Of a stretch of DNA of 17,729 nt, positions 1,657 to 17,535 are shown piece by piece. This DNA comes from Myxococcota bacterium (GTDB lineage: Bacteria > Myxococcota > JACRCW01). The stretch spans positions 1 through 17,729 of the forward strand of contig JBFMGU010000216.1 of NCBI GenBank assembly GCA_040752415.1, given 5' to 3'. The translations under genes and the position numbers were made by a program. The stretch's first letter is position 1. Every line of letters starts with the position of its first letter. Under the pieces are notes generated by a model. The model saw nothing but the letters and a program-made list of their open reading frames with translations. It ran no database searches and was not told where the DNA came from.

Positions 1657-2080
1657 GGCCGCCTCCCTCCGCGCGCTTCTGCATCACGCGCTTGATCATG
1701 TCCGAGTAGGAGACCGTGCCCTGCTCCTCCCGCGTGGCGCTGAAACCGGAATCCATGGGCGTGCGCGCGCCATGGCGGTAGCGCGCGTGGGTGGCGTCCA
1801 ACCACACCGGCTCCGTCTCGTGGTGCACCCACGCGTGGTCCACCACCACCTCACCCTCCTGGAGCTTCTGCACCATGCAGCCGATGTCGTCGAAGTAGAG
1901 GCGCGCACCGTCCTTGGTGGTCACCTGCGCGGCGTAGGCGCGGTCACCCACCAGCATGGCGCAGTGCGCGCACTTCTCCTTGCCCCACACCGGGTCCACC
2001 GGCACGTCGGGACGCTCCTGGCAGGCCAGCACGAAGAGCCCCAGAACCGCGACGAAACACCACTTCATCCACGTCGTCAT
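1643..2080 (-). CDS. nosL: NosL, copper-chaperone lipoprotein
   Basis: Start placed at ATG 2080, which overlaps the nosF stop (ATGA) and follows RBS GGGGAG. Lipobox VLAC; NosL motifs CAHCAM, FDDIGCM and TPMDSG; His-rich end GGGHGHH. Confidence 0.88.
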   Translation of the reverse strand: MTTWMKWCFVAVLGLFVLACQERPDVPVDPVWGKEKCAHCAMLVGDRAYAAQVTTKDGARLYFDDIGCMVQKLQEGEVVVDHAWVHHETEPVWLDATHARYRHGARTPMDSGFSATREEQGTVSYSDMIKRVMQKRAEGGGHGHH

Positions 2081-2979
2081 GACGCACTCCCCTGCCAGGG
2101 CCGCATCCACGCGGCGCCTTCCCCGTCGGAGATGGTGAGGTCCTGCAACAGCTCACCGCGCTCCCGCACCAACCGCCCCACAATCGCCAGCTTCTCCGCG
2201 TGTCCCAGGTGCGCCGCCAGACGTCCCGGTCCCACCTGGCGGAACCCGAGGGTGCGGAGCTCGTCGGTGAAGACGGAAAGCTCGGGAGCGGCGCGCTTGA
2301 TCTCCACCTCCACGCGGAAGGTGGCCTCGGAATCCAGGTGCGTGGCCAGCGGGCAGTCGCGCACCACGCGGCCGTCGCGCAGCTCCACCACGCGGTCCAC
2401 CAACGTGCGCACCTCGTCCAGGCGGTGGGAGCAAAGGATCAGGATGCTCTCGCCCGCACGTTCGTGGACCTGCTCGAAGAACGCGGTGCGCGCCACGGGG
2501 TCCAGGTTCGCGGTGGGCTCGTCGCAGACCAGGATGGGCGCCTCCGTGGCCAGCGCCATGGCGGCCAGCAGCTTCTGCTTCTGCCCACCGGACAGGTCGC
2601 GGAACCGCGTGGGACGCAGCGCCTCCAGGTCCAGACCCAGGCGGGCCACCCGCGCGCGCACGTCGTCATACGTCCGGCCGCGCAGGGCGCAGAAGGCCCG
2701 CACCACCTCACCCACCGGGGCCTCCAGCGGCGGCGCAATCTGCGGGATGTACGCCACGTGACGCAGCGCCTCCTCGGGAGAACGCGCGGGGTCCACGCCC
2801 CGGATGCGCACCTGCCCCTCCACGCGTACCAGCCCGATCAGCGCCCGCAGCAACGTGGTCTTGCCCGAGCCATTGGCGCCAACGAAGGCCACGCGCTCAC
2901 CCGGCTCCACGCGCAGCGTGACGTCGTGCAGGGCCCGCACCCGGGAGAACGACTTGGAGACGTTGTTGACCTCGATCAC
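2077..2979 (-). CDS. nosF: NosF, ABC transporter ATP-binding subunit
   Basis: Walker A GANGSGKT, Q-loop YIPQ, signature LSGGQ, Walker B ILVCDEP and H-loop CSH. The GTG start overlaps the nosD stop (GTGA). Confidence 0.92.
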   Translation of the reverse strand: MIEVNNVSKSFSRVRALHDVTLRVEPGERVAFVGANGSGKTTLLRALIGLVRVEGQVRIRGVDPARSPEEALRHVAYIPQIAPPLEAPVGEVVRAFCALRGRTYDDVRARVARLGLDLEALRPTRFRDLSGGQKQKLLAAMALATEAPILVCDEPTANLDPVARTAFFEQVHERAGESILILCSHRLDEVRTLVDRVVELRDGRVVRDCPLATHLDSEATFRVEVEIKRAAPELSVFTDELRTLGFRQVGPGRLAAHLGHAEKLAIVGRLVRERGELLQDLTISDGEGAAWMRPWQGSAS

Positions 2980-4313
2980 GGCAGACTCCCCACCTCGCGC
3001 ATGCGCGGGCGCGCATCCACGAGCAACTGACGACGCGCCAGGAACGGAATGGCGTGCGCCACCGCGTCCACCAGCGCCATGGCGGCGGTGCCCTGGAAGA
3101 GCCGGATGGCGGGATGCGCGTCGGTGATCTCGTGGCCCAGCTTCTTCACCTCGAACGCCACGTCGCCGTGTCCGTCGTCATCCAGGTCGTAGCCGGCGTA
3201 GTCGCTCCAGCGGTTGCCGGTGAAGTCCACCCCCAGCACGTCGCCACCACCTTCCACCTCCACCACGAACCCGTTGTTCTCGAAGCTGTTGTCATGGAAT
3301 GAGACGCCGCGCTGGCTGCTGTGGAAGCGCAGCGCCACGTCGTTGAGCGCGAACGTGTTGCCAATGAAGTCCACCGGCTGCTCCACGACGCGCGGCGTGC
3401 GGTCCAGGTAGGTGCCGGTGGTGTTGCCCACCAGGCGGTTCCGACGCACGTGGACACCGTCGCTCTCCTTGAAGCCCAGGCCCACGCCCGCCGGTCCGCG
3501 TCCGCCGGCCAGCAGGTTGTCCTCCGCCACCAGGCGCGCGCTGTACATGACAAAGATCCCCACGGTGTTGTCGACGATGCGGCTGTTCCGCACCACGCTG
3601 TCGTGCGCGTACATGAAGTGCGTGCCGTAGCGCCCGTTGCGGATGGTGTTGCCATCCAGCGTCACGCGGCGGGAGTACCAGACCACCACGTCCCGGGTGT
3701 TCTCGACCAGGTTCCGCGCCACCACCGCGTCATGCGACTCCCAGACCTTGATGCCGTCGCCCTGCTCCGCGCCGTGCAGCCCGGGCTCACCCGCCACCCA
3801 GCAGTCCTGCACCGCGCACCCCGGGCACATCTCCAGCGAGATGCCGAAGAACGCGCCCTGCACACGCACGTGGCTCACCAGGTTGCCCTTGCCCTTGACG
3901 CGCACGCCCGCGTCCTCGGTGGTGTTGCGCCTCCCGGAGTTGCGCACCGTGAGGTTCTCCAGCGTGACGCCGTCCGCCACCACGTCCATCACGGTGCCTT
4001 CCCCGCGCCCGTCAATCACGGCGCCCGGCTCACCGCTGAGCGTGAGGGGGCGACGGATGTGCAGCGGTCCCTGGTACACGCCGGCCTTCAGCCAGATGTT
4101 TCGTGGTCCTTCGGGATCGTTTAGCCACGCGTGCAGCTCGCTGCTGTCGACGGGCGTGCGCGCGTGGGTGTCGGGCATGCGCTCCACCGGACCGGCGCGG
4201 AGGCCCGGCACCGGCCGCCCCAGCTCCGGCGGTTGGGCCGCGGACCGGGACGCCACCAGTCCCCCCACGACGAGGAGGAGCGCCAGCGGCAGGGTGATGC
4301 GCAGGGAGCCCAT
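2976..4313 (-). CDS. nosD: NosD, periplasmic beta-helix maturation protein
   Basis: Start placed at ATG 4313 (MGSLRITLPLALLLVVGGLVASRSAA, signal peptide), 10 bp after the nosB stop. Parallel beta-helix repeats; NosD motifs RYGTHFMY and GNRWSDYAGYDLDDDGHGD. Confidence 0.92.
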   Translation of the reverse strand: MGSLRITLPLALLLVVGGLVASRSAAQPPELGRPVPGLRAGPVERMPDTHARTPVDSSELHAWLNDPEGPRNIWLKAGVYQGPLHIRRPLTLSGEPGAVIDGRGEGTVMDVVADGVTLENLTVRNSGRRNTTEDAGVRVKGKGNLVSHVRVQGAFFGISLEMCPGCAVQDCWVAGEPGLHGAEQGDGIKVWESHDAVVARNLVENTRDVVVWYSRRVTLDGNTIRNGRYGTHFMYAHDSVVRNSRIVDNTVGIFVMYSARLVAEDNLLAGGRGPAGVGLGFKESDGVHVRRNRLVGNTTGTYLDRTPRVVEQPVDFIGNTFALNDVALRFHSSQRGVSFHDNSFENNGFVVEVEGGGDVLGVDFTGNRWSDYAGYDLDDDGHGDVAFEVKKLGHEITDAHPAIRLFQGTAAMALVDAVAHAIPFLARRQLLVDARPRMREVGSLP

Positions 4314-4323
4314 GGTCACGCCT

Positions 4324-5037
4324 TCAACGCGCCAGCCCCGCGCCCGGACCCACCAGCGCGCTGGGACAGACGGCGCCGCAGCTCCCGGCCCGGCTGCAGG
4401 AGGCACACACGCGACGACGGAGGTAGAACGCCACGGTGAGCAGCCCCAACGCCACCAGCACCAGCCAGAATCCCAGCTGCGGCGTGGCAAAGGTGCGGAA
4501 CTGCGCAATGACACCCTCGCCAAACATCGACGGCGTGAAGGGCGGGATCTTCAACGGCGCCTTGGGGTCCAGGTTGTTCCCGAAGCGGTGCATCCAATAC
4601 ATGTTGTCGACGATGAAGAGGGTGGGGAACAGCATTCCCGGCACCATCATCAGCGCGGAGAGCCTGCGCCCGGACAACAGGCTCAACGCCAGGACCAGGA
4701 TGCCCACCGCCGCCACGCCCCATCCCGCCAGACGACGTTCCACCGGCGCGGCTTCCTCCAGCTTGGCCATGCCGATGTAGTGGTTCAGCGTGTTGATCTC
4801 TCCAACGTCGCCGGAGACGCCGGTCAGGGAGATCGTGACGCTGAGGCCTTTGGGGTACTGCGGCGCGAACAGCGTGATGTTCCACCACGGTTGCGTGTAG
4901 CTCACCGCGTAGAGCACCACCGCGGCCAGCGCCAGCCCCACCACCGCCCACCGCAGGGCCAGGTTGCGCGGCTTGCGTGCGGGGGCGGTGTTGAGGACCG
5001 ACAGCGACGACGTGACGTGGGTGGCGGAGGCATTCAT
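4324..5037 (-). CDS. nosB: NosB, 4-TM membrane protein of clade II nos clusters, with a C-terminal Cys4 extension
   Basis: Start placed at ATG 5037, 2 bp after the cytochrome c stop. Contains the NosB hallmarks PWWNITLFAPQYPKGL, EINTLNHYIGM and FGNNLDPKAP, and lies between nosZ/nosC and nosD. Confidence 0.88.
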   Translation of the reverse strand: MNASATHVTSSLSVLNTAPARKPRNLALRWAVVGLALAAVVLYAVSYTQPWWNITLFAPQYPKGLSVTISLTGVSGDVGEINTLNHYIGMAKLEEAAPVERRLAGWGVAAVGILVLALSLLSGRRLSALMMVPGMLFPTLFIVDNMYWMHRFGNNLDPKAPLKIPPFTPSMFGEGVIAQFRTFATPQLGFWLVLVALGLLTVAFYLRRRVCASCSRAGSCGAVCPSALVGPGAGLAR

Positions 5038-5039
5038 GG

Positions 5040-5516
5040 TCACTTCTCGTTGGCTTTCAGGTAGGCCATGAGCGCGGGCAGCTCGGTGGCCGGGTCCACG
5101 CCCTGGTTCGGCATGGGGAGCATGTACGTCTTGAACAGCTCCTTGGCCGCGGGGTCCTGTTGGATCATCAGGTCCGGGCGCAGGATCATGCGCTGCGTCC
5201 ACTTGAGCGAGCGGCGCTCGGTGACGCCCTTGAGGTCAGGGCCCACCAGCTTTCCACCGCCGATCTTGTGGCACGCACCACATCCCTTGGAGCCGAAGAG
5301 CTCCTTGCCCTTCTCGACGTCCGCCGCCGCCGTGCTGATCGTCGCCAGGGGAGCGACAATCGCCTCGGGACCGTCCGCGGTGACCGCCGGAGCGGCGGGC
5401 GGGGCGGGTGCGGCGGCCGGCGCCGGCGCGGAAGCCTCCTCGGGGGGAGCCTCCTCCGCACGGGTGCAGGCCACCAGGAACGCCGCAGCCATCAACGAGA
5501 GTGCAACCGACTTCAT
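5040..5516 (-). CDS. nosC: Monohaem cytochrome c lipoprotein (NosC-type electron donor to NosZ)
   Basis: Lipobox LVAC, Ala/Pro linker, single haem motif CGACH, GPDL and a distal Met region (MLPMPN). RBS AGGAGG; directly downstream of nosZ. Confidence 0.85.
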   Translation of the reverse strand: MKSVALSLMAAAFLVACTRAEEAPPEEASAPAPAAAPAPPAAPAVTADGPEAIVAPLATISTAAADVEKGKELFGSKGCGACHKIGGGKLVGPDLKGVTERRSLKWTQRMILRPDLMIQQDPAAKELFKTYMLPMPNQGVDPATELPALMAYLKANEK

Positions 5517-5545
5517 GATACCTCCTAAACTTCACGAATGGGACT

Positions 5546-7528
5546 TCAACGCTTCTTCGGCTTCACCAGCAGGTAACCCGCCATCTCCAGGTGCAGCGCC
5601 GAGCAGAACTCCGTGCAGAAGAACGGGTAGACGCCGGGCCGGTCGGCCTTGAACGTCAGGTTCTCGTGCTTGCCGGGCTCCAGGCTGAGGTTCACGTTGT
5701 GCATGTTGAACGTGAGCCCGTGGGTCTGGTCCTCGCTCTGCTCCAGGCTGGTGATGTGGACGTTCACCGTGTCGCCTTCCTCCACGACGATCTGGTCCGG
5801 AGTGAAGTGGCTGCGGATGGCGGTCATGTAGACGTCCACCACGTTGCCCTTGCGCTCAATGCGCTCCTGGCCGGCCATCACCGCGTGCTCATCCTTCTGC
5901 ATGGTCCCGGGGTTGGTGCCCACGGGGTAGACCTTGAGCGGCTTGAGCTTGTCGGCCTTGATCATCTGGCTGTAGTGCGGCTCACCAATGCCAATGGGCG
6001 CGTCCACCAGCACCTTCATCTGCGGGCTGGCAATGTCCACCAACTGGAAGTTCTGCGGATAGAGCGGGCCCACGCCGGTGAACCGGTCAATGGACATCTT
6101 GTTCATGGCCACCACGTACTTGCCGTCGGGGCTGATGGTGTCACCCTCCGCCGCCAGGATGTGGCCGATGTTGTAGTGGACGCTGAGCTTCTCGATGGTG
6201 CGCAGCTCCTTGAGCGACCACTTGGCCACCGCGCTCTCCAGGAACACGCTGGTGTACGCGTTGCCCTGGTTGTCATAGACGGTGTGCAGCGGGCCCAGGC
6301 CAATCTCCACCTGGCCGCGGATGGCCTCCTTGAACGGCAGGATGGGAATCCCGTAGACGTCCTTGCCTTCGTACTTCTTCGCCTCGATGAGGCCCTTGAT
6401 CTTCTCGAAGGAGTAGACGGTGGCGTGCGTGTCCAGCTTGCCGCCCACCACGATGTCCACACCGTCCGGCGTCACGTCCACGCCGTGCGGGCTCTTGGGC
6501 TCACCAATGAGGGAGAGCACACCCTCCTCCGCCGCGGTGGTCATGCTGAGCACGCGCATGCCCTTGATGGTGGTGGTCTTGCCCGCGGCCACCAGCTGCT
6601 CGGCCTTCTTCCAGTTGATGACGTGGAGGTAGTCCATGTCGTTCTGGGAGGCGCCGGACTCAATGGGCGGCTTGCCATCCATCACGCCACCGGTGGCCAT
6701 CTCGGTGTTGAAGGAGTTGATGAACACCCAGCCGTCGCTGACCAGCTTGCCGGCGTCGGCGAGGTCCTGCGTGTAGGGCGGCAGCTCCAGCGCCCAGCTC
6801 TTGCTCTGGTCAATGCGGCCGGTCTTGCGGTCGAACTTCCAGAAGATGGCCACGCCCCGGTACTTGTCCTTGTACTCGTCCAGCGTGGCGTAGGTGCGGC
6901 CCAGCGGCGCGGGGTACTGGCTGGTCTCGATGATGTATTCGGTGTTCGGGTCGACGAACGCGCCGCCGTGGTCACTGGCCGCCAGCGGGTTGGCCACGAT
7001 CTGCTTGGTGCTGAAGTCCGCCAGGTCCACCACGGCCACGCGCGCATTGGCCTTGTCGTTCACGAACAGGAACTTGCCGTCGTACTCGCCGCCCGTCTCG
7101 GAGAGGTTGGGGTGATGCACGTCGGCCCAGGTGATGGGTCGGCCGTCCTGGTAGCCACCCTCCAACACCTTGTTGCCCTCTTCACCGCCGTAGCCGTAGC
7201 CCTGCCAGGGTTCCGGGGTGAAGACGCCAATGACCTTCAACAGGCGCATGGATGGGACGCCAATGACCAGCACCTGTCCGGACTGACCGCCGGAGGCGAA
7301 GATCATGTAGTCGTCCTGCTTGCCGGTGGGGTTGTAGGTCTTTAGTGCTGCTTCAACATCCGCTTCGCTCAGGCCGCGCGCGGTCATCAGCTCCTTGATG
7401 GAGGAAGAGGTGGCGGCGGCGGGGGCGGCCTTCTGGCCCCCCGAGGACTTGGCGGGAGTGCAGCTATAGGCGAGGCCGATGGCGCCAACTGCCACCGCCA
7501 CGGCTCCCAGGGTTTTCCATGCACGCAT
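5546..7528 (-). CDS. nosZ: Clade II (Sec-type) nitrous-oxide reductase NosZ
   Basis: 660 aa. All seven CuZ His are recognisable (DVHH, SDHGG, SPHG, GPLH, IGH, EPH), and the CuA domain has THG...CTEFCSALHLEM. No twin-arginine motif; DxHH/EPH rather than clade I DxHHxH/EPHD; FASGGQSGQ and PSMRLLKVIGVF motifs present. Confidence 0.97.
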   Translation of the reverse strand: MRAWKTLGAVAVAVGAIGLAYSCTPAKSSGGQKAAPAAATSSSIKELMTARGLSEADVEAALKTYNPTGKQDDYMIFASGGQSGQVLVIGVPSMRLLKVIGVFTPEPWQGYGYGGEEGNKVLEGGYQDGRPITWADVHHPNLSETGGEYDGKFLFVNDKANARVAVVDLADFSTKQIVANPLAASDHGGAFVDPNTEYIIETSQYPAPLGRTYATLDEYKDKYRGVAIFWKFDRKTGRIDQSKSWALELPPYTQDLADAGKLVSDGWVFINSFNTEMATGGVMDGKPPIESGASQNDMDYLHVINWKKAEQLVAAGKTTTIKGMRVLSMTTAAEEGVLSLIGEPKSPHGVDVTPDGVDIVVGGKLDTHATVYSFEKIKGLIEAKKYEGKDVYGIPILPFKEAIRGQVEIGLGPLHTVYDNQGNAYTSVFLESAVAKWSLKELRTIEKLSVHYNIGHILAAEGDTISPDGKYVVAMNKMSIDRFTGVGPLYPQNFQLVDIASPQMKVLVDAPIGIGEPHYSQMIKADKLKPLKVYPVGTNPGTMQKDEHAVMAGQERIERKGNVVDVYMTAIRSHFTPDQIVVEEGDTVNVHITSLEQSEDQTHGLTFNMHNVNLSLEPGKHENLTFKADRPGVYPFFCTEFCSALHLEMAGYLLVKPKKR

Positions 7529-7824: not shown

Positions 7825-10800
7825 CTACTGTTGCCGCTGCACGATGAGGGAGCGCTCGACGGCGGTGCAGAACTGGTCGCTGGCCGCTGCGACGTTCCAG
7901 CGGACCTCCAGGGTCTCATTGCCGGCCGAGGCGTTGGTGACGATGTCCTGGGTGCTGATGGTGAAGCTGTTGCCCGCCGTCACACGTTGCTGCCGCTCCG
8001 ACTCCGTTTCCAGGGTGCCGTTCCTGTAGAGGTTCAGGGACACGTTGTTGTTGTTGGTGCAGGCCACGCGGGCGTTCACGAACACCAGGTAGGTGCCCGG
8101 AGCGATGGTGGTGCTCAAGCTGTCCATGGGCACGTCGTCGAGGTCGGTGGCATTGAGGGTGTGCAGCACGCTGCCAGTGGCAACCGTCTCCGTCGCGGCC
8201 CGGGGTCGCTGCGCCCACGCCAGCGTTCCGGCGGTGTCCGACGACGTCAACACGGCGTCCGCGGTGGGGGCGGAGGCGGGAAGCGTGTAGGTGAGGGACG
8301 GGCCGGCCGCGGCGGGCTGCAGGGTGGTGGTGAAAGCGTTCCCGCTGTGCGCCAGCGTCACGGTACCCGCCGCGCTGCCCGCCGAGCCCAGAACCAAGGT
8401 GCCGGGAATGCTGACGGTTCCGGTCGTCCCCACCGTGACGCGGTTGGTTCCGTTGGTGGACAACGTGATGGTGTTGGCGCCCACGGCGTTGAGCTCCAGC
8501 GCGCCAGTGGCGTTCACCGTCACGCCGCCGCCGGTGGAGCTGATGTCGATGGCGGTGGCGTGCGTGACCTTGCTGGTGTCCACCTGCCCGACCTCCGCGG
8601 TGCCGGAAACAATGAGCGCCGTCCCGGTGGCGGTGAAGCGGTTGATGCCGGTGAAGGACTGGTCCGCGGACCCCAGCAGCGGAACCACCGCGCTGTCGAC
8701 GTGGAACGTGCCGCTGTTGAGCATCAAGCCCGTGCCCGCGGTGACGTTCTTGAGGCGCGTCCAGTCCACCGGGTTCGCGTTGTCGTTGAACGTGCCCGCG
8801 GTGTTGAGGTCGGTCTTGGCGTAGACGTCGGCAATGGCCGGGTAGCGCGCGTCGGATTCCACCTTGGTGTACGCGTCGCCAATCTGCGCGTAACGCGCGT
8901 CGGACTGGACCTGCGTGTACACGTCGGTGGTCAGTGGGTAGCGCGCGTCGGATTCCGCCTTGGTGTACGCGTCGCCAATCTGCGCGTAACGCGCGTCGGA
9001 CTGGACCTGCGTGTACACGTCGGTGGTCAGCGGGTAGCGCGCGTCGGCCTCGGCCTTCGTATAGACATCGCTTCGCGGATAATAGAGCGCGTCGTGCTTG
9101 TGATCCCCGCGGGCCACTGTCTCCAGCGCGCCGTTGTCATTGCCCGGATCCGCGGCGGTGAAGTCCACGTTGAACGTGTTGCCGCTCAGCGTGAGGCCCG
9201 CGCCGTCCAGGTACGCGCTCCCGTCGTCGATTCCGTCGGCAAACTGCGGCGGGATGCCCTTGATGCGCGTCCAGTCCACCGGGTCCGTCGGGTCGTTCAC
9301 CTGGGTATCCGCGGTGGCCAGGCTGGAGAACAGCGTATCCACCTCGGCCGCGGTGTAGACGTCGGTGGCCAGGGCAAAGCGCGCGTCGGACTCGGCCTGG
9401 GTGTAGAGCTGCGCCCGGGGGTAGTAGAGCGTGTCGTGCTTGTGGTCGCCGCGGGCCACCGTGGTGGCGGCACCGTTGTCATTGCCGGGATCCGCCGCGG
9501 TGAAGTCCGCCGCGAAGATGCCGGCGTTGAGCGTCAGGCCGTCGCCGTGGCTGTAGGTGGTGTCCTGGTCTCCGTCGAGGAGCGAGGCGGGGATGCCCTG
9601 GATGCGCGTCCAGTCCACCGGGTCGGTGCCTTCATTGGGAGCGGTGTCGGCGGTGAGCAGGTCGGTGCGGAGCTGGGAGAACTGCGCGTCCACCTGCGCC
9701 TGGGTGTACACGTCGGTGGTCAACGGGTAACGCGCGTCGGACTCCGCCTTGGTGTACGCGTCGCCAATCAGCGCGTAACGCGCGTCGGACTCCGCCTGGG
9801 TGTACGCGTCGCCAATCAGCGCATAGCGCGCGTCGGACTGCGCCTGGGTGTACACGTCGGTGGCCAGCGGGTAGCGGGCGTCCGACTCGGTCTTCGTATA
9901 GGCGTCACCAATCAACGCGTAGCGCGCGTCGGACTCGACCCGGCTATAGAGATCGCTTCGCGGATAATAGAGTGCGTCGTGACGGTGATCGGCGCGGGCC
10001 GCCACGGCCAGGTTTCCGTCCTCCGTGCTGGGCGCGGGGAAGGACACCGCAATCTGCACACCGGTGATGGTGATGCCCTCGCCCTGCGTGTAGGTCACAT
10101 CCGTCTCGGTGGAGCACGCCCACCCGTTCACGGTGTCAAACCGCAGGATCTCCCCGTCGGCGCACGGCATGACCGAGAGCGTGGCGTCGCCGCCGGTGGC
10201 CCCGCCGGTCAGGCCGTTGCCCGCAATCACCGCGCTGATGTCCCCGGTGCCGGGCGCGCCCACGTCGTCGGGAGCGCAGTCCCAGCCCGCGGGGCCGAAC
10301 TTCAGGATCTCACCATCCACGCAGGTCTGGAGCGCCAGGCTCACGTCGCCCGCGGCGGCGCCGCCCTGCAGGCCGCTGCCCACCGCGGTGTCCACCGACG
10401 TGACATCCCCGGTGGCCACCCCCAGGTCATCCGCCGCGCACGCCCAGCCGCTGGCGCCGAACTTCAGGATCTCCCCGGTCTGGCAGGTCACCAGGCCCAG
10501 GCTGATGTCGCCGGAAAGGCCGCCGCCCGTCAGGCCACCGCCCACCACGTTGATGCCGGTGACGTCGCCGGTGCCCGCCACGTCGTCGGAGCAGGCCCAC
10601 CCGGACGCACCGTACTTCAGGACCTGCCCATTGGCGCACGACGTCAACGTGAGCCCCACCGCGCCGCTGACCCCGCCGCTGGAGAGCCCGCTGCCACTGG
10701 CCACGGTGATGCCGGTCAGCGTGCCGCCGGAGTTGGTGTCGACGTCATTCGCGCAGCCCCACGCCGCTCCGTCGAACTTCAGGACCTGCCCCTCGAGACA

Positions 10801-11358
10801 GCCGGGGACGCTGAGGCTCAGCTCGTTGTTGCTCAGCCCCAGGGGACCGCGGACGGTGAGCGCGCGCTGGAACGCGGTGGCATCCAGGCCATCCAGCGTG
10901 TTGGCGGCCAGCGCCGTGGTGGCCACCGTGGCCGTGTCGGCCAGCACCGACTTGTCGGCGTGGGCGGCCTGGAACGCGTAGGGCGTGGTGGCCAGGGGGA
11001 AGCGCGGCAGCTCTCCGTCGGGATCACCTTCCACCGTGACGCCCAGCCACATGGTGCCGAAGGCGGCGAAGTCCAGCGGGTCCAGCGAGGTCACCCGGCC
11101 CAGCTGCACCGAGAACACGCCGCCATCCACCGCCACGCCGGTCTGCACCTCCTCGTAGACGGGGTTGGTGCCGGTCTGGTCGGCGTAGAGTCGGAAGGTC
11201 AGGTTGAACGTGCCGCTTTCCAGTCCGCCGCCGGTCTGTCGCAGGACACCCTGCACGTTCAGCGTGGTGGGAACCCCCGCCGCGCGCACGTCCCGCGCTC
11301 CCACGAGGAGCAACACCGCCAGGGCCAACACGTTCCTGATGCCGAGTTTCATGCTCAT
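7825..11358 (-). CDS. Secreted 1177-aa modular trimeric-fibre/adhesin-like protein (phage tail-fibre-like repeats, MAT-like N-terminal domain)
   Basis: Start at ATG 11358 with RBS GAGG overlapping the upstream stop; signal peptide ending VRA-A. N-domain PTTLNVQGVLR...FRLY...GVFSVQLG...WLGVTV...PRFPLATTPYA; five CxxG[QE][VI]L[KR][FY]...WxC repeats; three HxHD-xLYYPR / YTxxESDARY / PVDWTR super-repeats; beta-rich shaft; ~125-aa C-terminal beta-sandwich-like head. Confidence 0.85.
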   Translation of the reverse strand: MSMKLGIRNVLALAVLLLVGARDVRAAGVPTTLNVQGVLRQTGGGLESGTFNLTFRLYADQTGTNPVYEEVQTGVAVDGGVFSVQLGRVTSLDPLDFAAFGTMWLGVTVEGDPDGELPRFPLATTPYAFQAAHADKSVLADTATVATTALAANTLDGLDATAFQRALTVRGPLGLSNNELSLSVPGCLEGQVLKFDGAAWGCANDVDTNSGGTLTGITVASGSGLSSGGVSGAVGLTLTSCANGQVLKYGASGWACSDDVAGTGDVTGINVVGGGLTGGGLSGDISLGLVTCQTGEILKFGASGWACAADDLGVATGDVTSVDTAVGSGLQGGAAAGDVSLALQTCVDGEILKFGPAGWDCAPDDVGAPGTGDISAVIAGNGLTGGATGGDATLSVMPCADGEILRFDTVNGWACSTETDVTYTQGEGITITGVQIAVSFPAPSTEDGNLAVAARADHRHDALYYPRSDLYSRVESDARYALIGDAYTKTESDARYPLATDVYTQAQSDARYALIGDAYTQAESDARYALIGDAYTKAESDARYPLTTDVYTQAQVDAQFSQLRTDLLTADTAPNEGTDPVDWTRIQGIPASLLDGDQDTTYSHGDGLTLNAGIFAADFTAADPGNDNGAATTVARGDHKHDTLYYPRAQLYTQAESDARFALATDVYTAAEVDTLFSSLATADTQVNDPTDPVDWTRIKGIPPQFADGIDDGSAYLDGAGLTLSGNTFNVDFTAADPGNDNGALETVARGDHKHDALYYPRSDVYTKAEADARYPLTTDVYTQVQSDARYAQIGDAYTKAESDARYPLTTDVYTQVQSDARYAQIGDAYTKVESDARYPAIADVYAKTDLNTAGTFNDNANPVDWTRLKNVTAGTGLMLNSGTFHVDSAVVPLLGSADQSFTGINRFTATGTALIVSGTAEVGQVDTSKVTHATAIDISSTGGGVTVNATGALELNAVGANTITLSTNGTNRVTVGTTGTVSIPGTLVLGSAGSAAGTVTLAHSGNAFTTTLQPAAAGPSLTYTLPASAPTADAVLTSSDTAGTLAWAQRPRAATETVATGSVLHTLNATDLDDVPMDSLSTTIAPGTYLVFVNARVACTNNNNVSLNLYRNGTLETESERQQRVTAGNSFTISTQDIVTNASAGNETLEVRWNVAAASDQFCTAVERSLIVQRQQ
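8840..9047. repeat. In-frame 48-bp (16-aa) tandem array containing a near-perfect 96-bp duplication
   Basis: 8840-8935 and 8936-9031 differ at only 2 of 96 positions, and a further 16 bp repeat at 9032-9047. Encodes PLTTDVYTQVQSDARY-AQIGDAYTK[AV]ESDARY twice. Confidence 0.93.
9679..9966. repeat. In-frame 48-bp (16-aa) tandem array, six units
   Basis: Recurring gcgcgtcggact and gtgtac cores at 48-bp period. Encodes ALIGDAYTxxESDARY / PLxTDVYTQAQxDAxx units. Confidence 0.9.
10114..10800 (-). repeat. Five ~51-54-aa disulfide-knot/Gly-rich shaft repeats within the fibre gene
   Basis: CLEGQVLKF...WGC, CANGQVLKY...WAC, CQTGEILKF...WAC, CVDGEILKF...WDC and CADGEILRF...WAC, separated by G(D/T)(V/I/L)(T/S)...GxGLxxGG..G.(V/I)xL spacers. 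Confidence 0.9.
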
Positions 11359-11369
11359 GGCAAATGACC

Positions 11370-11963
11370 TCACCGGACTTCCAAGGTGCTGAAGAGACCC
11401 ACGGAGAGGATGGCGCCGTTCCCGTTGGCCACGGGACCGCTGACCACCGCCTCTCCCACGCACATCTGCAGGTCATGCGCCTGCCCCTGCGAACGGCCGC
11501 CGCCACCGGCGGTCATCCACAGGTCGCGGGTGGGCAACGTGCCGCCGCTGCTGCTGCTGCTGGTCGACGACGAGCTGATCACCCCGCTGGAGCTGCTGGT
11601 GCCGGACACCGAGCCGCTGCTGGAGGTGGAGCTGGAGGATGGCTCGCCACTGCTTGAGCTGGAGGACGAGACGATGACGCCGCTGCTCGACGACGAGCTG
11701 AGGCCCACGTTCCCGTCATCCGCCAGGCAGATGCCGGCCGCGCACACCGGCGTGCGTGCGGGGCAATCCCCGTCGCCCTCACAGAGCTTGCGACAGAGCC
11801 CGTCATGGCACGACCAGCCCTCCGCGCAATCCGCGGCGGAAGAACAGGGATAATCCCGGCCGTCCGTGGAAGGCAGCGGGCAGGCCACCGCGGCCAGCAA
11901 CGCCGCGACGATCCCTGTCAGCAGTGCGCCGCTCCGGCCGCGGGGAGCGTGTTCCAGGTGCAT
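11370..11963 (-). CDS. Small lipoprotein (~197 aa): Cys-rich domain, poly-Ser linker and C-terminal Gly-rich beta module; coupled to the fibre gene
   Basis: Probable start ATG 11963; hydrophobic stretch ending in lipobox AVAC; 8 further Cys in two CxxxxDC...C...C units; Ser-rich linker; C-terminal WMTAGGGGRS...VGEAVVSG...LSVGLF. Its TGA overlaps the fibre gene RBS (TGAGG). Confidence 0.75.
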   Translation of the reverse strand: MHLEHAPRGRSGALLTGIVAALLAAVACPLPSTDGRDYPCSSAADCAEGWSCHDGLCRKLCEGDGDCPARTPVCAAGICLADDGNVGLSSSSSSGVIVSSSSSSSGEPSSSSTSSSGSVSGTSSSSGVISSSSTSSSSSGGTLPTRDLWMTAGGGGRSQGQAHDLQMCVGEAVVSGPVANGNGAILSVGLFSTLEVR

Positions 11964-12168: not shown

Positions 12169-13674
12169 GTGAGCACGTTTCTTCATCCCAGGACGCTCCT
12201 CCTCCACCTGGCGCTGCTGGCCGCCACCTCGCCGGCATGGGCCGCGGATACGTGGACGGATCCCTATCCCGGCATCCGCTACCTGCACCGCAGCACCAAC
12301 GAGCCCAAGGAGATCCACGCGCTGGTGGTGAACCTGCGGGAGCCGGGCCTGACCCTGCGCGCCAGCAAGGAGAGCGAGAAGGGCAAGACGCCCTCGCAGT
12401 TCAGTGACCTGGTGGGCGCCGCGGCGGTGATCAACGGGGACTTCTACAACACCAACGGGAGCTTCCAGCCCGTGGGACTCGCGGTGGGCGCGGGCGTGCA
12501 CTGGAGTGGCACCGCGGATTCCACCGGGCACCGCTTCCTCGCCTGCACGTCGGGGAATGACTGCATCATCGACACCACCAACTCCGCGCGCGCCCTCGAC
12601 GCGGACTGGCGCAACGTGGTGGGTGGCAACCGGCTGCTCATCAACGCCGGGGACCGCTGGACCACGCAGGATGACCAGGCGTGCGGAGACTTCTGCACCA
12701 CGCAGCACCCGCGCACCGCGGTGGGGCTGAGCCAGGACGGCAACACGCTGTACCTCGTCATGGTGGAAGGCCGTCAGACGCCCATCCTGGGCATGACGCT
12801 CTCGCGCCTGGCGGACCTCCTGGCGGAGCTGGGCGCCCACCACGCGCTCAACCTCGACGGAGGCGGCAGCTCAGGCATGGTGGTGGGCGGGGAGCTGGTG
12901 AACAACCGGCCCAGCAACGAGCCGAGTGAGCGTCGCGTGGCCAACTGCCTGGCGGTGCTCTACCAGCAGCCCACCAACTCCGGCCGCCTCAAGGGCTACA
13001 TCCGCGCCCGCGACATCTACGACACCAACGCCGGCATCAGCGGCGCCACCGTCACGCTCTCCACGGGACAGACCGCCACCACCAACAGCAGCGGGCTCTA
13101 TGATTTTCCGTCGGTGAGCACCGGGTCGGTGACCGTGACGGCGTCCAAGGCCGGCTGGCAGACCGCATCCGAGGCCAAGGTGGTGGAGCCCGGGATCACC
13201 AACTGGAAGAGCATGGCGCTGTTCCCCGTCGAGCAGGACGCGGGAACGCCGCCGGTGCCGGACGCGGGCTCGTCGGTGGATGCCGCCTCCCCGCCGGATG
13301 CCGCCTCACCGCCGGATGCCGCGGTCACGGTGGACGCGGGCACGCCCGACCTCGTCGACGCCGGCACCACCACGCCCGACGCCGCGCAGAACGAGGAGCC
13401 GGACGCCGCCACGCCGGGGACCGACGCGTCGGTGGAGGAACCGGACGCCGCCGTCGAGCCAACGCCGCAGGACGCGGGCACCGACGTGGCCGACGCCGCC
13501 ACCGGCACCGGGTCCACCGCCGACGCCGGCGTCGACGTGCAGCACGACGGTCACGACGAGGATCCCGCTTCCCAGGCCGACGACACCCCCGCCTTCGGCT
13601 GCAGCACCACCTCGGGCGCAACCCCGCTGTGGCTGCTGTTGGGCCTCCTGCCGCGACGTCGGGCGCGCCGCTGA
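12169..13674 (+). CDS. Phosphodiester glycosidase (NAGPA/DUF2233-like) family surface protein with carboxypeptidase-regulatory-like domain, DAG stalk and MYXO-CTERM-like tail
   Basis: GTG start after RBS GAGAGGA; signal peptide ending AWA-A. Motifs INGDFY, HPRTAVG, VEGRQ and ALNLDGGGSS; GATVTL...TTNSSGLYDF...VTASKAGW domain; C-terminus GCSTTSGATPLWLLLGLLPRRRARR. Confidence 0.85.
   Translation: MSTFLHPRTLLLHLALLAATSPAWAADTWTDPYPGIRYLHRSTNEPKEIHALVVNLREPGLTLRASKESEKGKTPSQFSDLVGAAAVINGDFYNTNGSFQPVGLAVGAGVHWSGTADSTGHRFLACTSGNDCIIDTTNSARALDADWRNVVGGNRLLINAGDRWTTQDDQACGDFCTTQHPRTAVGLSQDGNTLYLVMVEGRQTPILGMTLSRLADLLAELGAHHALNLDGGGSSGMVVGGELVNNRPSNEPSERRVANCLAVLYQQPTNSGRLKGYIRARDIYDTNAGISGATVTLSTGQTATTNSSGLYDFPSVSTGSVTVTASKAGWQTASEAKVVEPGITNWKSMALFPVEQDAGTPPVPDAGSSVDAASPPDAASPPDAAVTVDAGTPDLVDAGTTTPDAAQNEEPDAATPGTDASVEEPDAAVEPTPQDAGTDVADAATGTGSTADAGVDVQHDGHDEDPASQADDTPAFGCSTTSGATPLWLLLGLLPRRRARR
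13278..13322. repeat. 18-bp tandem repeat (2.5 copies) in the DAG stalk
   Basis: ggatgccgcctc[c/a]ccgcc twice plus ggatgccgc; encodes DAASPP-DAASPP-DAA. Confidence 0.8.
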
Positions 13675-13711: not shown

Positions 13712-15259
13712 ATGCACCGTTTCCTCGCGCGCCTGCTACCGGTGTTCCTGCTTCCCGCTCCGCTCCTGGCCGCGGAACCCGTGGTGCTGGAGGGCCAGGT
13801 TCCCGACGACGACTCGGATTTCCTCCTGCTCCCATTCACGGTGCCGGAGGGCACAGCGGAGCTGGAGTTCGCCCACGACGATCTTTCCGAGGAGAACATC
13901 CTGGACTGGGGCCTGGATGACCCGCAGGGCTTCCGCGGATGGGGCGGCGGCAACTCGGAGAACGCGCTCCTCACCGAGCAGGCCGCGTCGCGGAGCTACC
14001 TGCGCGGGCCGTTGCCGGCGGGGCCCTGGCAGGTGGTGGTGGGCAAGGCCAAGATCAACGACGCACCCGCGCAGTACCGCATCACGCTGACGTTTCGCGA
14101 GCAGCCCACGCTCCCCGCGCAGCCCGAGCGACGCGCGTACGTCGACGCGGCACCGCTGGAGACCACGGCGCGCTGGTACGCGGGGGACTTCCACGTCCAC
14201 TCGCGGGAGAGCGGGGACGCGCGCCCGCCTCTCGACGAGATTGCCGACTTCGCGCGCGGGCGCGGCCTGGATTTCGTGGAGATCTCCGACCACAACACCG
14301 TCTCCCACCTGGAGTTCCTCCCCGACGCGCAGTCCCGGCATCCGCGCCTGCTGCTCATGCCCGGCGTGGAATTCACCACCTACGGCGGGCACGCCAACGG
14401 CATCGGTGCCACGCAATGGGTGAGCCACCGCATGGGTCTGCCGGGCGTCGACGCGGAGGGCGCGGCGCGGGCGTTCCAGGACCAGGGCGCGGTGTTCTCC
14501 ATCAACCACCCCGAGCTCGACCTGGGCGACGCGTGCATCGGCTGCGTGTGGCAACACCAGGTTCCCGGCGAGCTGATTGGCGCGGTGGAGATTGCCACCG
14601 GCGGCTGGCGACAAGCGGGATTCCTCTTCACGCAGAAGGCCATCGACTTCTGGGAGTTCCTGTGCGGCCAGGGCTTCCACGTCACCGCCATCGGCGGCAG
14701 CGACGATCACCGCGCGGGCGTGGACCTTGGCGCCTTCGGCAGTCCCATTGGTGATCCCACGACGATGGTCTTTGCCAACGAGCTCAGCACCCCGGCGATT
14801 GTCGCCGCGGTGAAGGCGGGGCGCACGGTGGTGAAGCTGCAGGGACCGGAGGATCCCATGGTGGACCTGCGCGCGGGCACGGCCATGGTGGGTGACTCCA
14901 TCGCGGTTTCCTCGACGACGCTGAAGGCCACCGTCACCGACGGCGTGGGCGCGCAGCTCATCCTGGTGCACAACGGCGTGCCGCAGGATCCGGTCACCAT
15001 TGACGCCAACCCGTTCACGCATGAGCGCCTGGTGCAGAGCCCGGCGAGCGGTGAGGACCGCTGGCGCGCGGAGGTCCACGTCGACGGGAATCCGCGCACG
15101 GTGACCAGCCACCTCTACCTCCGCCACGGAGAGATTCCCAACGAGGGCCGGGACACGCTGTTCTGCCATTGCACCCACGTCGGTGGAGGCACGGGAGTCG
15201 GGATGCTGGTGCTCCTCGTCGGAGTGTTCAGGGGCCGGCGGTCTTCTCGGCGGGTTTGA
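13712..15259 (+). CDS. PHP-fold (CehA/McbA-like) metallohydrolase, secreted, with MYXO-CTERM-like tail
   Basis: Start ATG 13712 (or GTG 13709); signal peptide MHRFLARLLPVFLLPAPLLA. PHP metal motifs GDFHVHS, SDHN, GVE...GHAN, NHP and GGSDDH; C-terminus CHC...MLVLLVGVFRGRRSSRRV. Confidence 0.85.
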   Translation: MHRFLARLLPVFLLPAPLLAAEPVVLEGQVPDDDSDFLLLPFTVPEGTAELEFAHDDLSEENILDWGLDDPQGFRGWGGGNSENALLTEQAASRSYLRGPLPAGPWQVVVGKAKINDAPAQYRITLTFREQPTLPAQPERRAYVDAAPLETTARWYAGDFHVHSRESGDARPPLDEIADFARGRGLDFVEISDHNTVSHLEFLPDAQSRHPRLLLMPGVEFTTYGGHANGIGATQWVSHRMGLPGVDAEGAARAFQDQGAVFSINHPELDLGDACIGCVWQHQVPGELIGAVEIATGGWRQAGFLFTQKAIDFWEFLCGQGFHVTAIGGSDDHRAGVDLGAFGSPIGDPTTMVFANELSTPAIVAAVKAGRTVVKLQGPEDPMVDLRAGTAMVGDSIAVSSTTLKATVTDGVGAQLILVHNGVPQDPVTIDANPFTHERLVQSPASGEDRWRAEVHVDGNPRTVTSHLYLRHGEIPNEGRDTLFCHCTHVGGGTGVGMLVLLVGVFRGRRSSRRV

Positions 15260-15915: not shown

Positions 15916-17535
15916 ATGAACGGTGTCACCGTGATCACGCGCGTTGTCCTTTGCTCTGCAGCATTCCTCCTCGCCGGTTGTTCTCCTCCCTCCTCCGCCA
16001 CCGACGCCGGCACCGCTGCTCTGGACGCCACCAACGCGGTGGACGGCGGTGTTGGCCAACCGGACTCCGGCACGCTTCCCGACGCAGGAACGCCCTTCCA
16101 CGACGGCGGCATCGACGGTGGAAGCACCGACGCGGGCACCCCGGAGACCGACGCCGGAACGCTGGGCACCTACGCCGACCTGGAGCAGACCCTCTGCCAG
16201 GACATCCCCGCGTTCATCTGTGAGTCGGCCACCAACTGCGGATGCATCGTACCCAGCGGTGACGTCGTGGATGCCACCACCTGCACCACCCAGCGTCGTG
16301 AGCAGTGCGTGCAGCAGCTCCAGGTCTTCCAGCAGCCCATTGCCGACGGGCTGGTGGTGGTGCTCAAGGACCGGCTGGCGCAGTGCCTGGCGCGTTACCA
16401 CACCGTGATTGGCACCTGTGAGGCGCCGCTCTCTCCGCTGCTGATCGCGGAGTGCGACCCGGTGGTGTCGACGACGGTGCGCCTGGGTGAATCCTGCACC
16501 GAGCCCATCTGCGACTTCGGGCGCGGCTACTGCGACAACAACGGTATCTGCCAACCGGTCCCCGGCCCCGGTGGGTCGTGCACGCGTTTGTGCCAGGTGG
16601 GCTCGTGGTGTCGTGAGGGTACGTGCACCGCGTTCGTGGCGGAGAACGGAGCCTGCACGACGAGGGAAGACTGCGCGCCGCCGCTCCAGTGCCTCAACAA
16701 CACGTGCACGTCGCTGGTGACGGAGAACGGCGCGTGCACCGACACCGCGCAATGCGCCGCGGGCCTGGAGTGCAGCAACAATGTGTGCACCGCGCCGGGC
16801 GCATGCTCCACGCACGGGCAGACGTGCGCCAACCTGGCCAGCTGCGCGGTGCCCGTCGACCGTCGCTGCGCGACGAGGGAGCCGGAGGGCGCCGCGTGCC
16901 AGCAGAACAGCGACTGCGCCGACGGCCTCTACTGCGACAACGTCACCACGACGTGCACCACGCTCCCCGGCGGCGGCTCAGCGTGCGGAAACGGGGTGAG
17001 CTGCGCGGCGGGACTCGGGTGCCATGAGCAGAGCACCACGTGCGAGACGTTGCCCGGCGACGGCGCGAGCTGCGCGCTGGGACCGGAGGGACCCTTCCTC
17101 TGCGCCGCGGGCCTGGGCTGCCTCAACGGAGTGTGCGGACCGCTGCCGGTGCAGGGCGAGGAGTGCGCCATCCCGAACACGTGCGCGCCGGAGTACGCGT
17201 GTGACTTCACGCCGGAAGGGAGCGTGTGCGCTACCCGTCGTGGCGACGGCGCAGCGTGCCAGAACGACCAGATCTGCGAGAGCGGCTTGTTCTGCGACTA
17301 CGCGGGCAACAGCACGTGCACGCCAGCGCGGCCCACCGGCGCGGCCTGCTCGTCGGGAAACGAGTGTGGATCGGACGCGGTGTGCCTCCCCGGCGGGAGC
17401 GGCTACCAGTGCGCGCCGATGCCACAGCAGGGAGAGTCATGCCTGTTTGACTGTGCGGCCGGACTCTATTGCCGCGCGAACCTGGGCGAAGGCCGGTGCG
17501 TCCCGGAACTGTGCTCGGCGGTGACGGGGAGCTGA
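15916..17535 (+). CDS. Cys-rich repeat lipoprotein (EB/Dickkopf-like disulfide modules) with DAG stalk
   Basis: Lipobox LAGC; DAG/DGG stalk; helical Cys domain followed by many GxxC...C...GLxC...C units, e.g. the duplicated CTxxVxENGACTxxxxC. Confidence 0.85.
   Translation: MNGVTVITRVVLCSAAFLLAGCSPPSSATDAGTAALDATNAVDGGVGQPDSGTLPDAGTPFHDGGIDGGSTDAGTPETDAGTLGTYADLEQTLCQDIPAFICESATNCGCIVPSGDVVDATTCTTQRREQCVQQLQVFQQPIADGLVVVLKDRLAQCLARYHTVIGTCEAPLSPLLIAECDPVVSTTVRLGESCTEPICDFGRGYCDNNGICQPVPGPGGSCTRLCQVGSWCREGTCTAFVAENGACTTREDCAPPLQCLNNTCTSLVTENGACTDTAQCAAGLECSNNVCTAPGACSTHGQTCANLASCAVPVDRRCATREPEGAACQQNSDCADGLYCDNVTTTCTTLPGGGSACGNGVSCAAGLGCHEQSTTCETLPGDGASCALGPEGPFLCAAGLGCLNGVCGPLPVQGEECAIPNTCAPEYACDFTPEGSVCATRRGDGAACQNDQICESGLFCDYAGNSTCTPARPTGAACSSGNECGSDAVCLPGGSGYQCAPMPQQGESCLFDCAAGLYCRANLGEGRCVPELCSAVTGS

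Follow-up and report, generated by a model that had tools for sequence, protein, structure and literature searches.

A small lipoprotein coupled to a MAT-type fibre in a Myxococcota bacterium: a likely anchor for the fibre base

Introduction

The DNA examined here (the window, a stretch of 17,729 nucleotides from a Myxococcota bacterium) carries a tightly coupled pair of genes in which the C-terminal module of a small lipoprotein probably clips onto the base of a fibre, likely trimeric, of the mosaic adhesive trimer (MAT) type, the lipid holding the fibre on the envelope. In the original study of these fibres in Bdellovibrio bacteriovorus, the element that binds their N-domain is left unidentified (Caulton et al., 2024; PMC10769870, Discussion); judging from the structure predictions described below, the lipoprotein module is likely to be this cell-surface anchor. 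Homologues of MAT fibres in Myxococcota are already published, as Supplementary Table S3 of that study names members from Myxococcales and Bradymonadaceae (PMC10769870). The partner lipoprotein appears to be undescribed: a literature search, with most subscription papers outside its reach, returned no description of it, and the word "lipoprotein" has no occurrence in the main text and supplement file 1 of the MAT paper (PMC10769870).

The Gene Pair and Its Surroundings

All features described here lie on the minus strand. The gene of the partner lipoprotein (P0002, 11370..11963, an ORF of 197 aa) is followed by that of the fibre (P0001, 7825..11358, 1177 aa), and the stop codon of the former overlaps the GAGG ribosome-binding site of the latter (11368..11372), its TGA (11372-11370) being placed in TGAGG, 11 nt ahead of the fibre ATG. 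This overlap had been pointed out in a first-pass annotation made from the letters alone, and both ORFs proved to be real and correctly positioned. A simple scan of the locus gave no sigma-70 promoter. A functional tie to the neighbouring nos cluster was rejected, as the paralogous loci have different neighbours.

The same annotation had seen no phage, T6SS or eCIS genes nearby, and the family searches agree. PHROGs gave no virion genes among the fibre, the lipoprotein and 12 other genes of the window (zero matches for the first two; ABC-transporter and unknown-function families only for the other 12), and Pfam and NCBIfam scans of six flanking genes gave no T6SS or eCIS components. An outer-membrane translocator is likewise absent from the window (Pfam and NCBIfam on the flanking genes, PHROGs on the window genes); the genome encodes a type II secretin scoring above cut-off. 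A prophage or tailocin tail fibre is ruled against by the signal peptide of the protein and the lack of a virion-gene context.

The Fibre: Base, Shaft, and Tip

The fibre begins with a Sec-type signal peptide read from the sequence (residues 1-26, 11281..11358), directly after which the conserved domain starts in all relatives. This N-domain (residues ~27-135, 10954..11280), assigned by profile comparison and a structure model, is a predicted Ig-like beta-sandwich (model pLDDT 82) and corresponds to the beta-rich domain of ~130 aa found right behind the signal peptide throughout the MAT superfamily. Its resemblance to Bdellovibrio MAT proteins, proposed earlier from a motif pattern, is borne out by alignment against alignment (A3 versus the Bdellovibrio MAT N-domains, HHalign 98.8%, E 8e-16) and by model NF053851 (Bdello_MAT_N), which matches 27 of 39 members of the N-domain family at E<=0.1. 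The fibre itself scores under the cut-off of 60 of that model (20.1 bits at full length, 28.7 for the domain alone, 23.8 in the genome search), which places it outside this narrow subfamily.

The fibre has no Pfam or PHROG family, and neither it nor the N-domain profile has a sequence relative in the PDB; no similar solved structure was found for the base. A fold search of the N-domain against the PDB gave nothing at E<=0.001, the best matches being generic Ig-like domains (Z 7.2) and four weak viral Ig-like domains, and no family was identified from either. A single-protein scan of genome_contigs gave no match, and neither did a tblastn search of plasmids with the N-domain. The base domain comprises 89,354 clusters at 50% identity and has no Pfam family.

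Behind the base lie five Cys repeats like those of MAT shafts (residues ~180-420, 10099..10821), located by repeat motif and profile search; these C..G[QE][VI]L[KR][FY] units begin at residues 187, 241, 292, 346, and 399. Their profile matches 21 ORFs across 24 Bdellovibrio MAT loci (best E 7e-13), in line with the likeness noticed in the first reading, and provides the fibrous shaft with MAT-type repeats that characterizes the superfamily. The shaft continues with 16-aa YT...ESDARY repeats, encoded in 48-bp arrays, and three VDWTR blocks (8749..10086), recognized from the sequence and from weak tblastn matches (E 2e-5 to 1e-3) to tail and long-tail-fibre proteins of phages. A Gly/Thr-rich, probably beta-rich segment (8242..8748), partly common to a paralogue on contig C312 and with no family over cut-off, precedes the tip.

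The tip domain (7828..8211) is a predicted TNF/C1q-like jelly roll (AF2, mean pLDDT 77), folded on eight sequences, five of which were picked by eye from other fibre ends because the search for tip homologues returned no relatives. The model matches Pgp3 CTD (Z 13.2, rmsd 2.7 over 116), the TNF-like lectin PLTL (Z 11.9), and BAFF (Z 10.9), a fold that lies within the trimer-forming TNF/C1q families. A phmmer match of the tip to p34 (E 0.02, the sole one) was disregarded. The predicted jelly roll occupies the C-terminus, which fits the earlier remark that the fibre has no beta-barrel anchor and would set it apart from trimeric autotransporters, defined by a C-terminal beta-barrel. No S74 chaperone/peptidase occurs at this end either (no Pfam match; TNF-like model), and the fibre is not of the S74 subgroup.

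The Lipoprotein and Its Predicted Contact with the Fibre Base

The partner starts with a lipoprotein signal peptide and a lipobox-like LAAVA-C28 (11880..11963), read from the sequence and laid out in the same way in paralogous partners. A Cys-rich segment follows (11724..11882; the lipid Cys28 and eight further Cys, weak DUF7107 match under cut-off), of a type frequent among other lipoproteins of this genome, and then a poly-Ser spacer evident in the sequence (residues ~89-141, 11541..11699) in place of which relatives have DAG-, EG-, Pro- or Asp-rich spacers. The C-terminal module (residues 144-197, 11373..11534), the predicted fibre-binding clip, is delineated by alignments A2 and A4, the complex prediction, and a periodicity of ~19 residues; the signal for three repeats is modest, this periodicity being equalled in 23 of 2,000 shuffles. 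The module on its poly-Ser spacer had been recognized in the first-pass annotation, which called it Gly-rich; three short beta-strands linked by Gly turns are the more fitting description. The lipoprotein has no family over cut-off in Pfam, PHROGs or NCBIfam, and for the module no sequence relative in the PDB and no similar solved structure were found. A homologue search with the module returned eight proteins, and the matches in the Atlas belong to unnamed clusters only.

A complex prediction of the kind suggested in the first-pass annotation, with one module and three N-domains, places the module in contact with all three copies and scores 0.73 against 0.02 for the best control; the mark for this score is reached by 116 of 157 solved pairs and 2 of 215 mismatched pairs, a calibration set from which the present set-up (three copies, own alignments) differs, and the score is silent on trimer formation. 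The runs agree in at least 73% of contacts, with a pLDDT of at least 74 for the partner, which alone is covered by the score, and of 79-89 for the three N-domain copies. That the predictor reproduces an already solved structure is less likely, as no similar one was found for base or module. The predicted contacts fall on the same face of all three bases, grouped about the first strand, a conserved stretch (NVQGVL, residues 33-44), with an antiparallel register that pairs V35/G37/L39 with V169/M167/L165. On this model, the three internal repeats of the module would match three protomers in a predicted stoichiometry of 1:3.

Conservation of the Gene Linkage

The genome encodes 16 N-domain ORFs with unrelated, swapped C-terminal parts (by eye, S74-like, tail-collar-like, collagen, beta-helix-like, and propeller-like ends), a mosaic family with a conserved base, exchanged tips and many paralogues as expected of the MAT superfamily. 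Ten of the 16 genes are preceded, at gaps of -4 to 17 nt, by a small lipoprotein ending in the module of ~52 aa; the remaining six stand without such a neighbour. Of 52 N-domain genes in held-out genomes of the phylum, 18 (spread over 14 of the 29 new genomes) have an upstream ORF whose end reaches at least 10 bits for the module, and 34 stay under this mark; of 1,503 control ORF ends, 4 reach it, and two of these are in fact modules next to fibres. The loci of this survey and of those below were drawn from best-scoring lists and are related by descent, and the counts are therefore not independent. A sister genome (G001) has 25 N-domain matches and one weak match in the module search, and another genome (G136) 20 and two. 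The pairing is beyond chance because 10 of the 16 loci in the genome itself are paired and the held-out counts are far above the controls, so that the observation made on the window stands and the neighbourhood survey proposed with it finds the two modules conserved side by side in this genome and in held-out ones.

A module profile trained on this phylum alone was then run blind on Bdellovibrio-group genomes. Its top match lies directly upstream of a MAT gene in three of five genomes (a placement with a chance of about 8e-4 and 4e-4 in the two genomes computed), and the other two have no match; E values are 0.05-1, and it is position alone that carries these assignments. Aligned module to module, the two groups reach only 50% in HHalign. 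Among held-out Bdellovibrionota, four of 26 MAT loci score 9.6-22.9 bits, the control maximum being 5.2 among 721, and inspection by eye finds 33 of 47 MAT loci of the Bdellovibrio group without an adjacent partner. In distant metagenome loci, all 21 module ORFs found among 3,326 ORFs stand beside a fibre gene and on its strand, 24 of 37 loci having no adjacent partner; two of these ORFs bear a T9SS sorting domain over cut-off and no lipid. The sorting device attached to the module varies (lipobox, T9SS C-terminal domain, YLP-like tail), and the two genes stay linked even where gene order, anchor type, or lineage changes.

It is highly improbable, given these data, that the genes are simply co-regulated envelope genes whose proteins do not bind, or that a tail-fibre gene stranded from a phage encodes the fibre. 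The weak likeness of the shaft repeats to phage tail proteins would suit such an origin, and a module so short and divergent (~52 aa, 18% mean column identity) can give weak profile matches; however, the persistent linkage and a complex score far above the controls speak for binding, and the signal peptide of the fibre, the lack of virion genes in the window, zero tblastn matches of the N-domain in annotated phages and none for a relative's profile in viral contigs speak against a phage gene.

Another possibility, unlikely on balance, is that the module binds the base as a periplasmic trimerization chaperone or export adaptor and is then left behind or released, the fibre being held otherwise or secreted free. 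The predicted contact fits this equally well, a single pseudo-threefold peptide on three protomers could nucleate the trimer, and the many fibres without an adjacent partner are expected of a reusable factor. However, in every case the module is borne on a spacer or a sorting tail, in the manner of a tether, its near one-to-one gene coupling in this genome fits a stoichiometric part, and in other lineages it is fused to a T9SS sorting domain. Such domains export a protein and attach it to the cell surface.

Proposed Mechanism and Implications

The reading of the first-pass annotation, a MAT-like fibre with a linked lipoprotein, is supported by the MAT homology, the linkage, and the predicted contact, and the anchoring of the fibre may be envisaged as follows. 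Fibre and lipoprotein would both be Sec-exported across the inner membrane, the fibre would trimerize, and the pair would reach the outer face, most plausibly via type II secretion, a system encoded in the genome. The module is predicted to clip onto the trimer base, and the lipid would anchor the fibre on the envelope, the Ser spacer presumably giving reach; the tip, whose predicted fold resembles TNF-like lectins, may bind a surface glycan. The target could be prey, other cells or the substrate; that it is prey specifically is doubtful.

The pair might also form and the fibre nevertheless be carried on outer-membrane vesicles, shed into the matrix or turned towards the periplasm instead of acting as a cell-surface adhesin. 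This seems improbable: it was a vesicle proteome that first revealed the MATs of Bdellovibrio (PMC10769870), and the window holds no outer-membrane translocator, but every C-terminally tagged MAT tested was on the cell surface (PMC10769870) and a long shaft with a lectin-like fold at its end suits an outward-facing adhesin.

For surface anchoring beyond this genome, the chances are about even that the pair exemplifies a very widespread two-part display system, in which a pseudo-threefold peptide of ~52 aa clips any trimer with MAT-type bases to the envelope anchor proper to each lineage (lipoprotein in Myxococcota and Bdellovibrio, T9SS domain, YLP-like tail); this would also be the anchor sought for the prey-recognition fibres of Bdellovibrio, with few module lipoproteins serving many fibres there. 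For the question of how MAT bases are anchored, the locus puts forward a specific protein, contacts predicted down to single residues, and a predicted 1:3 stoichiometry. Since candidate module homologues precede MAT genes in Bdellovibrio, which is open to genetic work, the question becomes a simple matter of binding and knockout. Shared anchors, if they exist, would mean that deleting a few of them might remove many redundant fibres together and bypass the weak phenotypes reported for single MAT genes. The base domain is a very large unannotated family across bacteria, and the rule, if true, would explain how many cellular proteins that resemble phage fibres and show no visible anchor are retained.

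Comparison with Known Systems

The closest known system is that of the non-S74 MAT fibres of B. bacteriovorus (Caulton et al., 2024; PMC10769870), above all Bd2439 and Bd2734 with their TNF tips. Shared features are a homologous beta-rich N-domain behind a signal peptide, the Cys shaft repeats, paralogues with swapped tips, a TNF-like tip fold (predicted here), and the absence of a beta-barrel anchor. In contrast to those fibres, the N-domain of the present one lacks their Cys-containing insertion and scores under the Bdello_MAT_N cut-off, the shaft has YT...ESDARY repeats, and the gene has a dedicated coupled partner, of which the paper makes no mention.

Phage long tail fibres (the T4-like distal subunit, the tail protein of Maribacter phage Molly) are also modular with exchangeable tips and are weakly similar in their shaft repeats (E 2e-5 to 1e-3), but the present protein has a signal peptide, no phage context, and an N-domain not found in phages; phage fibres are held by the baseplate, this one, if the prediction is right, by a cell-envelope partner. 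The tethering logic is also that of cohesin-dockerin systems, where secreted proteins are kept at the surface by a compact docking module that can be exchanged between anchors; searches gave no relation to them in sequence or family.

Strand pairing with an Ig-like domain, predicted here, also occurs in chaperone-usher pili and in the CPR Pam pilus (PMC13278184), which polymerize pilins with one strand per subunit, whereas here one three-repeat module would serve three protomers. The N-terminal part of PamT (NF058579) weakly matches 4 of 12 module-bearing proteins (best E 8e-7, 28.8 bits against a cut-off of 240) and one of the 52 module members of A4 (E 0.03). It does not match the module of the window, which falls outside PamT as defined by at least 240 bits and a pam operon.

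Trimeric autotransporter adhesins of the YadA type carry their head at the N-terminus and are anchored by a beta-barrel at the C-terminus. These are trimeric fibrous adhesins of the diderm envelope, as the present fibre probably is; in it the polarity would be reversed, the C-terminus forming the tip and the base relying on a separate partner.

The two-gene locus

The fibre gene (1177 aa; 7825-11358, minus strand) and that of its partner lipoprotein (197 aa; 11370-11963, minus strand) lie on one complete contig of 17,729 nt, from a genome of 11 Mb with 68.9% GC whose homologues, by the names they carry, indicate Myxococcota. As the first-pass annotation had stated, the stop codon of the small lipoprotein overlaps the ribosome-binding site of the fibre gene: it is contained in the TGAGG motif, and the fibre starts after a gap of 11 nt. 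The reported absence of phage genes nearby also holds, with none of the 14 window proteins scanned matching a PHROG virion family. Pfam/NCBIfam scans place in the flanks an alginate lyase, a nitrous oxide reductase cluster downstream of the fibre (814-7528, minus strand) and, on the plus strand, a phosphodiester glycosidase-family protein (12169-13674), a CehA/McbA hydrolase (13715-15259) and a Dickkopf-like Cys-rich lipoprotein (15916-17535); MYXO-CTERM-like ends occur on the glycosidase-family protein and the hydrolase. The cluster includes nosZ, with a Sec/lipoprotein-like leader, a c-type cytochrome and nosD/nosF/nosL/nosY-like genes in a clade II layout; nosZ was assigned by Pfam and the ABC ATPase by family match, the remaining labels by eye.

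Architecture and distribution of the fibre

A signal peptide (read by eye) precedes a base domain of ~110 aa, for which the model is a confident Ig-like beta-sandwich (81 residues exceed a pLDDT of 90). Among solved structures the fold search found nothing close to it, the best match having Z 7.2. The fibre matches the NCBIfam model Bdello_MAT_N (NF053851) weakly, at 20.1 bits and under the cut-off of 60, as do 27 of 39 aligned relatives; a profile of 97 relatives aligns with N-domains of mosaic adhesive trimers (MAT) from Bdellovibrio genomes at 98.8% (HHalign, E 8e-16). The base is followed by five Cys repeats; in a set of 24 Bdellovibrio MAT loci, their profile matches 21 ORFs. The likeness to MAT fibres first noticed in both N-domain and shaft is supported. 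Mid-shaft YT...ESDARY repeats weakly match phage tail proteins (10 records). The last ~128 residues are predicted to form a TNF/C1q-like jelly roll (Pgp3 CTD, Z 13.2; PLTL lectin, Z 11.9; BAFF, Z 10.9).

Sixteen ORFs of the same genome share the base and have unrelated ends. Of 151 genomes of the phylum, 65 have the domain, which also occurs in 89,354 clusters at 50% identity; a search with a single query did not find it in annotated phages or plasmids. Some proteins (P0014, P0125 and P0003-P0008) carry two or three tandem base domains per chain; P0014 and P0125 lack a shaft and end in what looks by eye like a PEP-CTERM-like tail. Prey recognition by the fibre, though possible, is unsupported for the present organism because the family reaches far beyond known predators.

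The partner module in the phylum

By eye, a small lipoprotein is found at -4 to 17 nt in 10 of the 16 base loci of this genome, with a low-complexity spacer and then a C-terminal beta module of ~45-55 aa; two divergent ones among the ten were kept out of the alignments. An eleventh partner, itself truncated, runs into its fibre, which is devoid of base domain and signal peptide; a second, intact fibre comes next (L038, G000:C481:37000-42600). The N-terminal loss is either a deletion or an assembly fault. Of the six fibres without a counted partner, four come after large unrelated proteins and one after another fibre, and the last lacks a nearby gene upstream. Two divergent base-domain proteins (L035 and L036, on G000:C504 and C112) lie after secreted proteins of ~2,400 aa with no small lipoprotein upstream; one of them has a small lipoprotein downstream.

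The expectation that both genes would be linked in other genomes was upheld in a held-out test, in which a module profile trained on 25 sequences was applied to other loci of the phylum; 3 genes whose upstream stretch was shorter than 400 nt and 10 that belonged to training genomes were dropped. For 18 of the 52 remaining N-domain genes, spread over 14 of 29 genomes, the upstream ORF end reached at least 10 bits, against 4 of 1,503 other ORF ends, two of which are real modules beside fibres. The loci came from the top of the match list and are kin to one another. About a dozen further loci among those listed have, by eye, a lipoprotein with a weaker module. Counting against a pairing rule, adjacent partners are almost absent from three genomes with 20-25 base matches apiece (the sister genome G001, G136 and G149). 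Genome-wide module searches retrieved one partner adjoining a fibre in G001 (L120), nothing convincing in G136 and, in G149 (23 base-domain matches; none of 7 fibre genes examined has a partner beside it), one stand-alone Ig-domain lipoprotein (Big_5) ending in the module (L118, G149:C52), a candidate shared anchor. Such anchors would account for these partner-poor genomes.

Predicted base-module complex

The module has a periodicity of ~19 residues, a level reached by 23 of 2,000 column shuffles and in line with three repeats. A multimer prediction, proposed in the first-pass annotation for the N-domain trimer and the lipoprotein C-terminus, was made with three base copies (residues 26-165), one module (144-197) and our own alignments. 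Contact is predicted, with a score of 0.73 (runs 0.77, 0.64 and 0.73), compared with 0.02 for the highest of three controls; the score rates the module partner only, neither trimer formation nor affinity. This mark is reached by 116 of 157 solved pairs and 2 of 215 mismatched pairs, counts that hold only roughly because the job used copies and its own alignments. Agreement between runs covers at least 73% of contacts, and the pLDDT of the partner is 74 or higher. Module residues 1-52 contact each of the three base copies, in every copy at residues 33-44 and about 105-127. In the strongest contact pairs (V35-V169, G37-M167 and L39-L165) the index sum is constant, and the module is therefore read as pairing antiparallel with the conserved QGxL strand of the base in the model.

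Exchangeable anchors and proposed mechanism

Among the 3,326 ORFs of 80 metagenome loci carrying more distant relatives of the base, 21 reach at least 10 bits for the module (up to 41.8; some duplicates). All are on the fibre strand and adjoin a fibre gene, mostly downstream, and modules are found in 13 of the 37 distinct loci having room after the last fibre. Their usual layout is a Sec signal peptide, the module and a further tail. In two of them this tail is a T9SS sorting domain that exceeds its cut-off, in several it is of YLPL type (YLP-like) and in one it consists of FG-GAP repeats; one protein is a lipoprotein. What stays constant in the system is therefore the module, whereas anchors are swapped. 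Atlas clusters of the YLPL-type tail lean to Chloroflexota, a lead only. HTH-like proteins immediately upstream of fibre genes (loci L305, L306, L309, L313 and L334) have a short C-terminal stretch resembling part of the module.

The mechanism that we favour as reasonably probable is that fibre and partner would be exported by Sec, the partner would be lipidated, the fibre would trimerise, one module would clip into the fibre base and the fibre would be displayed outwards, plausibly via type II secretion, an inferred route; GspD is over its cut-off in this genome. The chief rival, in which the module would serve in the periplasm as an adaptor for assembly or export, appears rather unlikely.

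The module in the Bdellovibrio group

A 52-sequence module profile trained on the phylum of the present organism only was searched against five Bdellovibrio-group genomes. Matches were weak (E 0.05-1) and none was obtained in two genomes; in the other three, the top match is the C-terminus of a ~190-aa lipoprotein immediately upstream of a MAT gene, a placement with a chance of about 8e-4 and 4e-4 in the two genomes computed. Another match, within a purine-synthesis gene, was rejected as false. By eye, 14 of 47 MAT loci have, upstream, a small protein whose end resembles the module (11 of 44 without the three module-found loci; 5 of 21 in strain s4). Seven MAT loci score 7-18 bits (control maximum 5.6 in 1,076 ORF ends); among 26 further Bdellovibrionota loci, four score 9.6-22.9 bits (control maximum 5.2 of 721). 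Module-to-module HHalign between the two groups gives only 50%, so homology here rests largely on position. At one Bdellovibrio locus an outer-membrane-barrel-like gene (L220:149-934, plus strand) is found upstream of the genes for the partner lipoprotein and the MAT fibre.

Comparison with known systems

The predicted tip belongs to the same fold class as the MAT tips Bd2439 and Bd2734 (PMC10769870). Base homology, Cys repeats, tip fold and swapped ends together identify the fibre, from sequence and models, as a non-S74 MAT in the broad sense, outside the narrow NCBIfam model. MAT-type fibres in Myxococcota are already known ground, since Table S3 of that paper includes one Myxococcales and one Bradymonadaceae member. 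The portions consulted of that paper describe no partner, and no anchor is named in those of PMC13689555, PMC13147790, PMC13721041 and PMC12034629; literature searches, with most subscription papers outside coverage, found no description of the partner. Four proteins with the module (L341, L318, L287 and L321) weakly match the N-terminal ~80 positions of PamT (NF058579), a CPR pilus protein (PMC13278184), a possible link to the Pam system. Lipoprotein and fibre are a real two-gene unit, and the partner module, widespread and apparently undescribed, makes a strong candidate, amenable to direct testing, for the missing anchor of MAT fibres.
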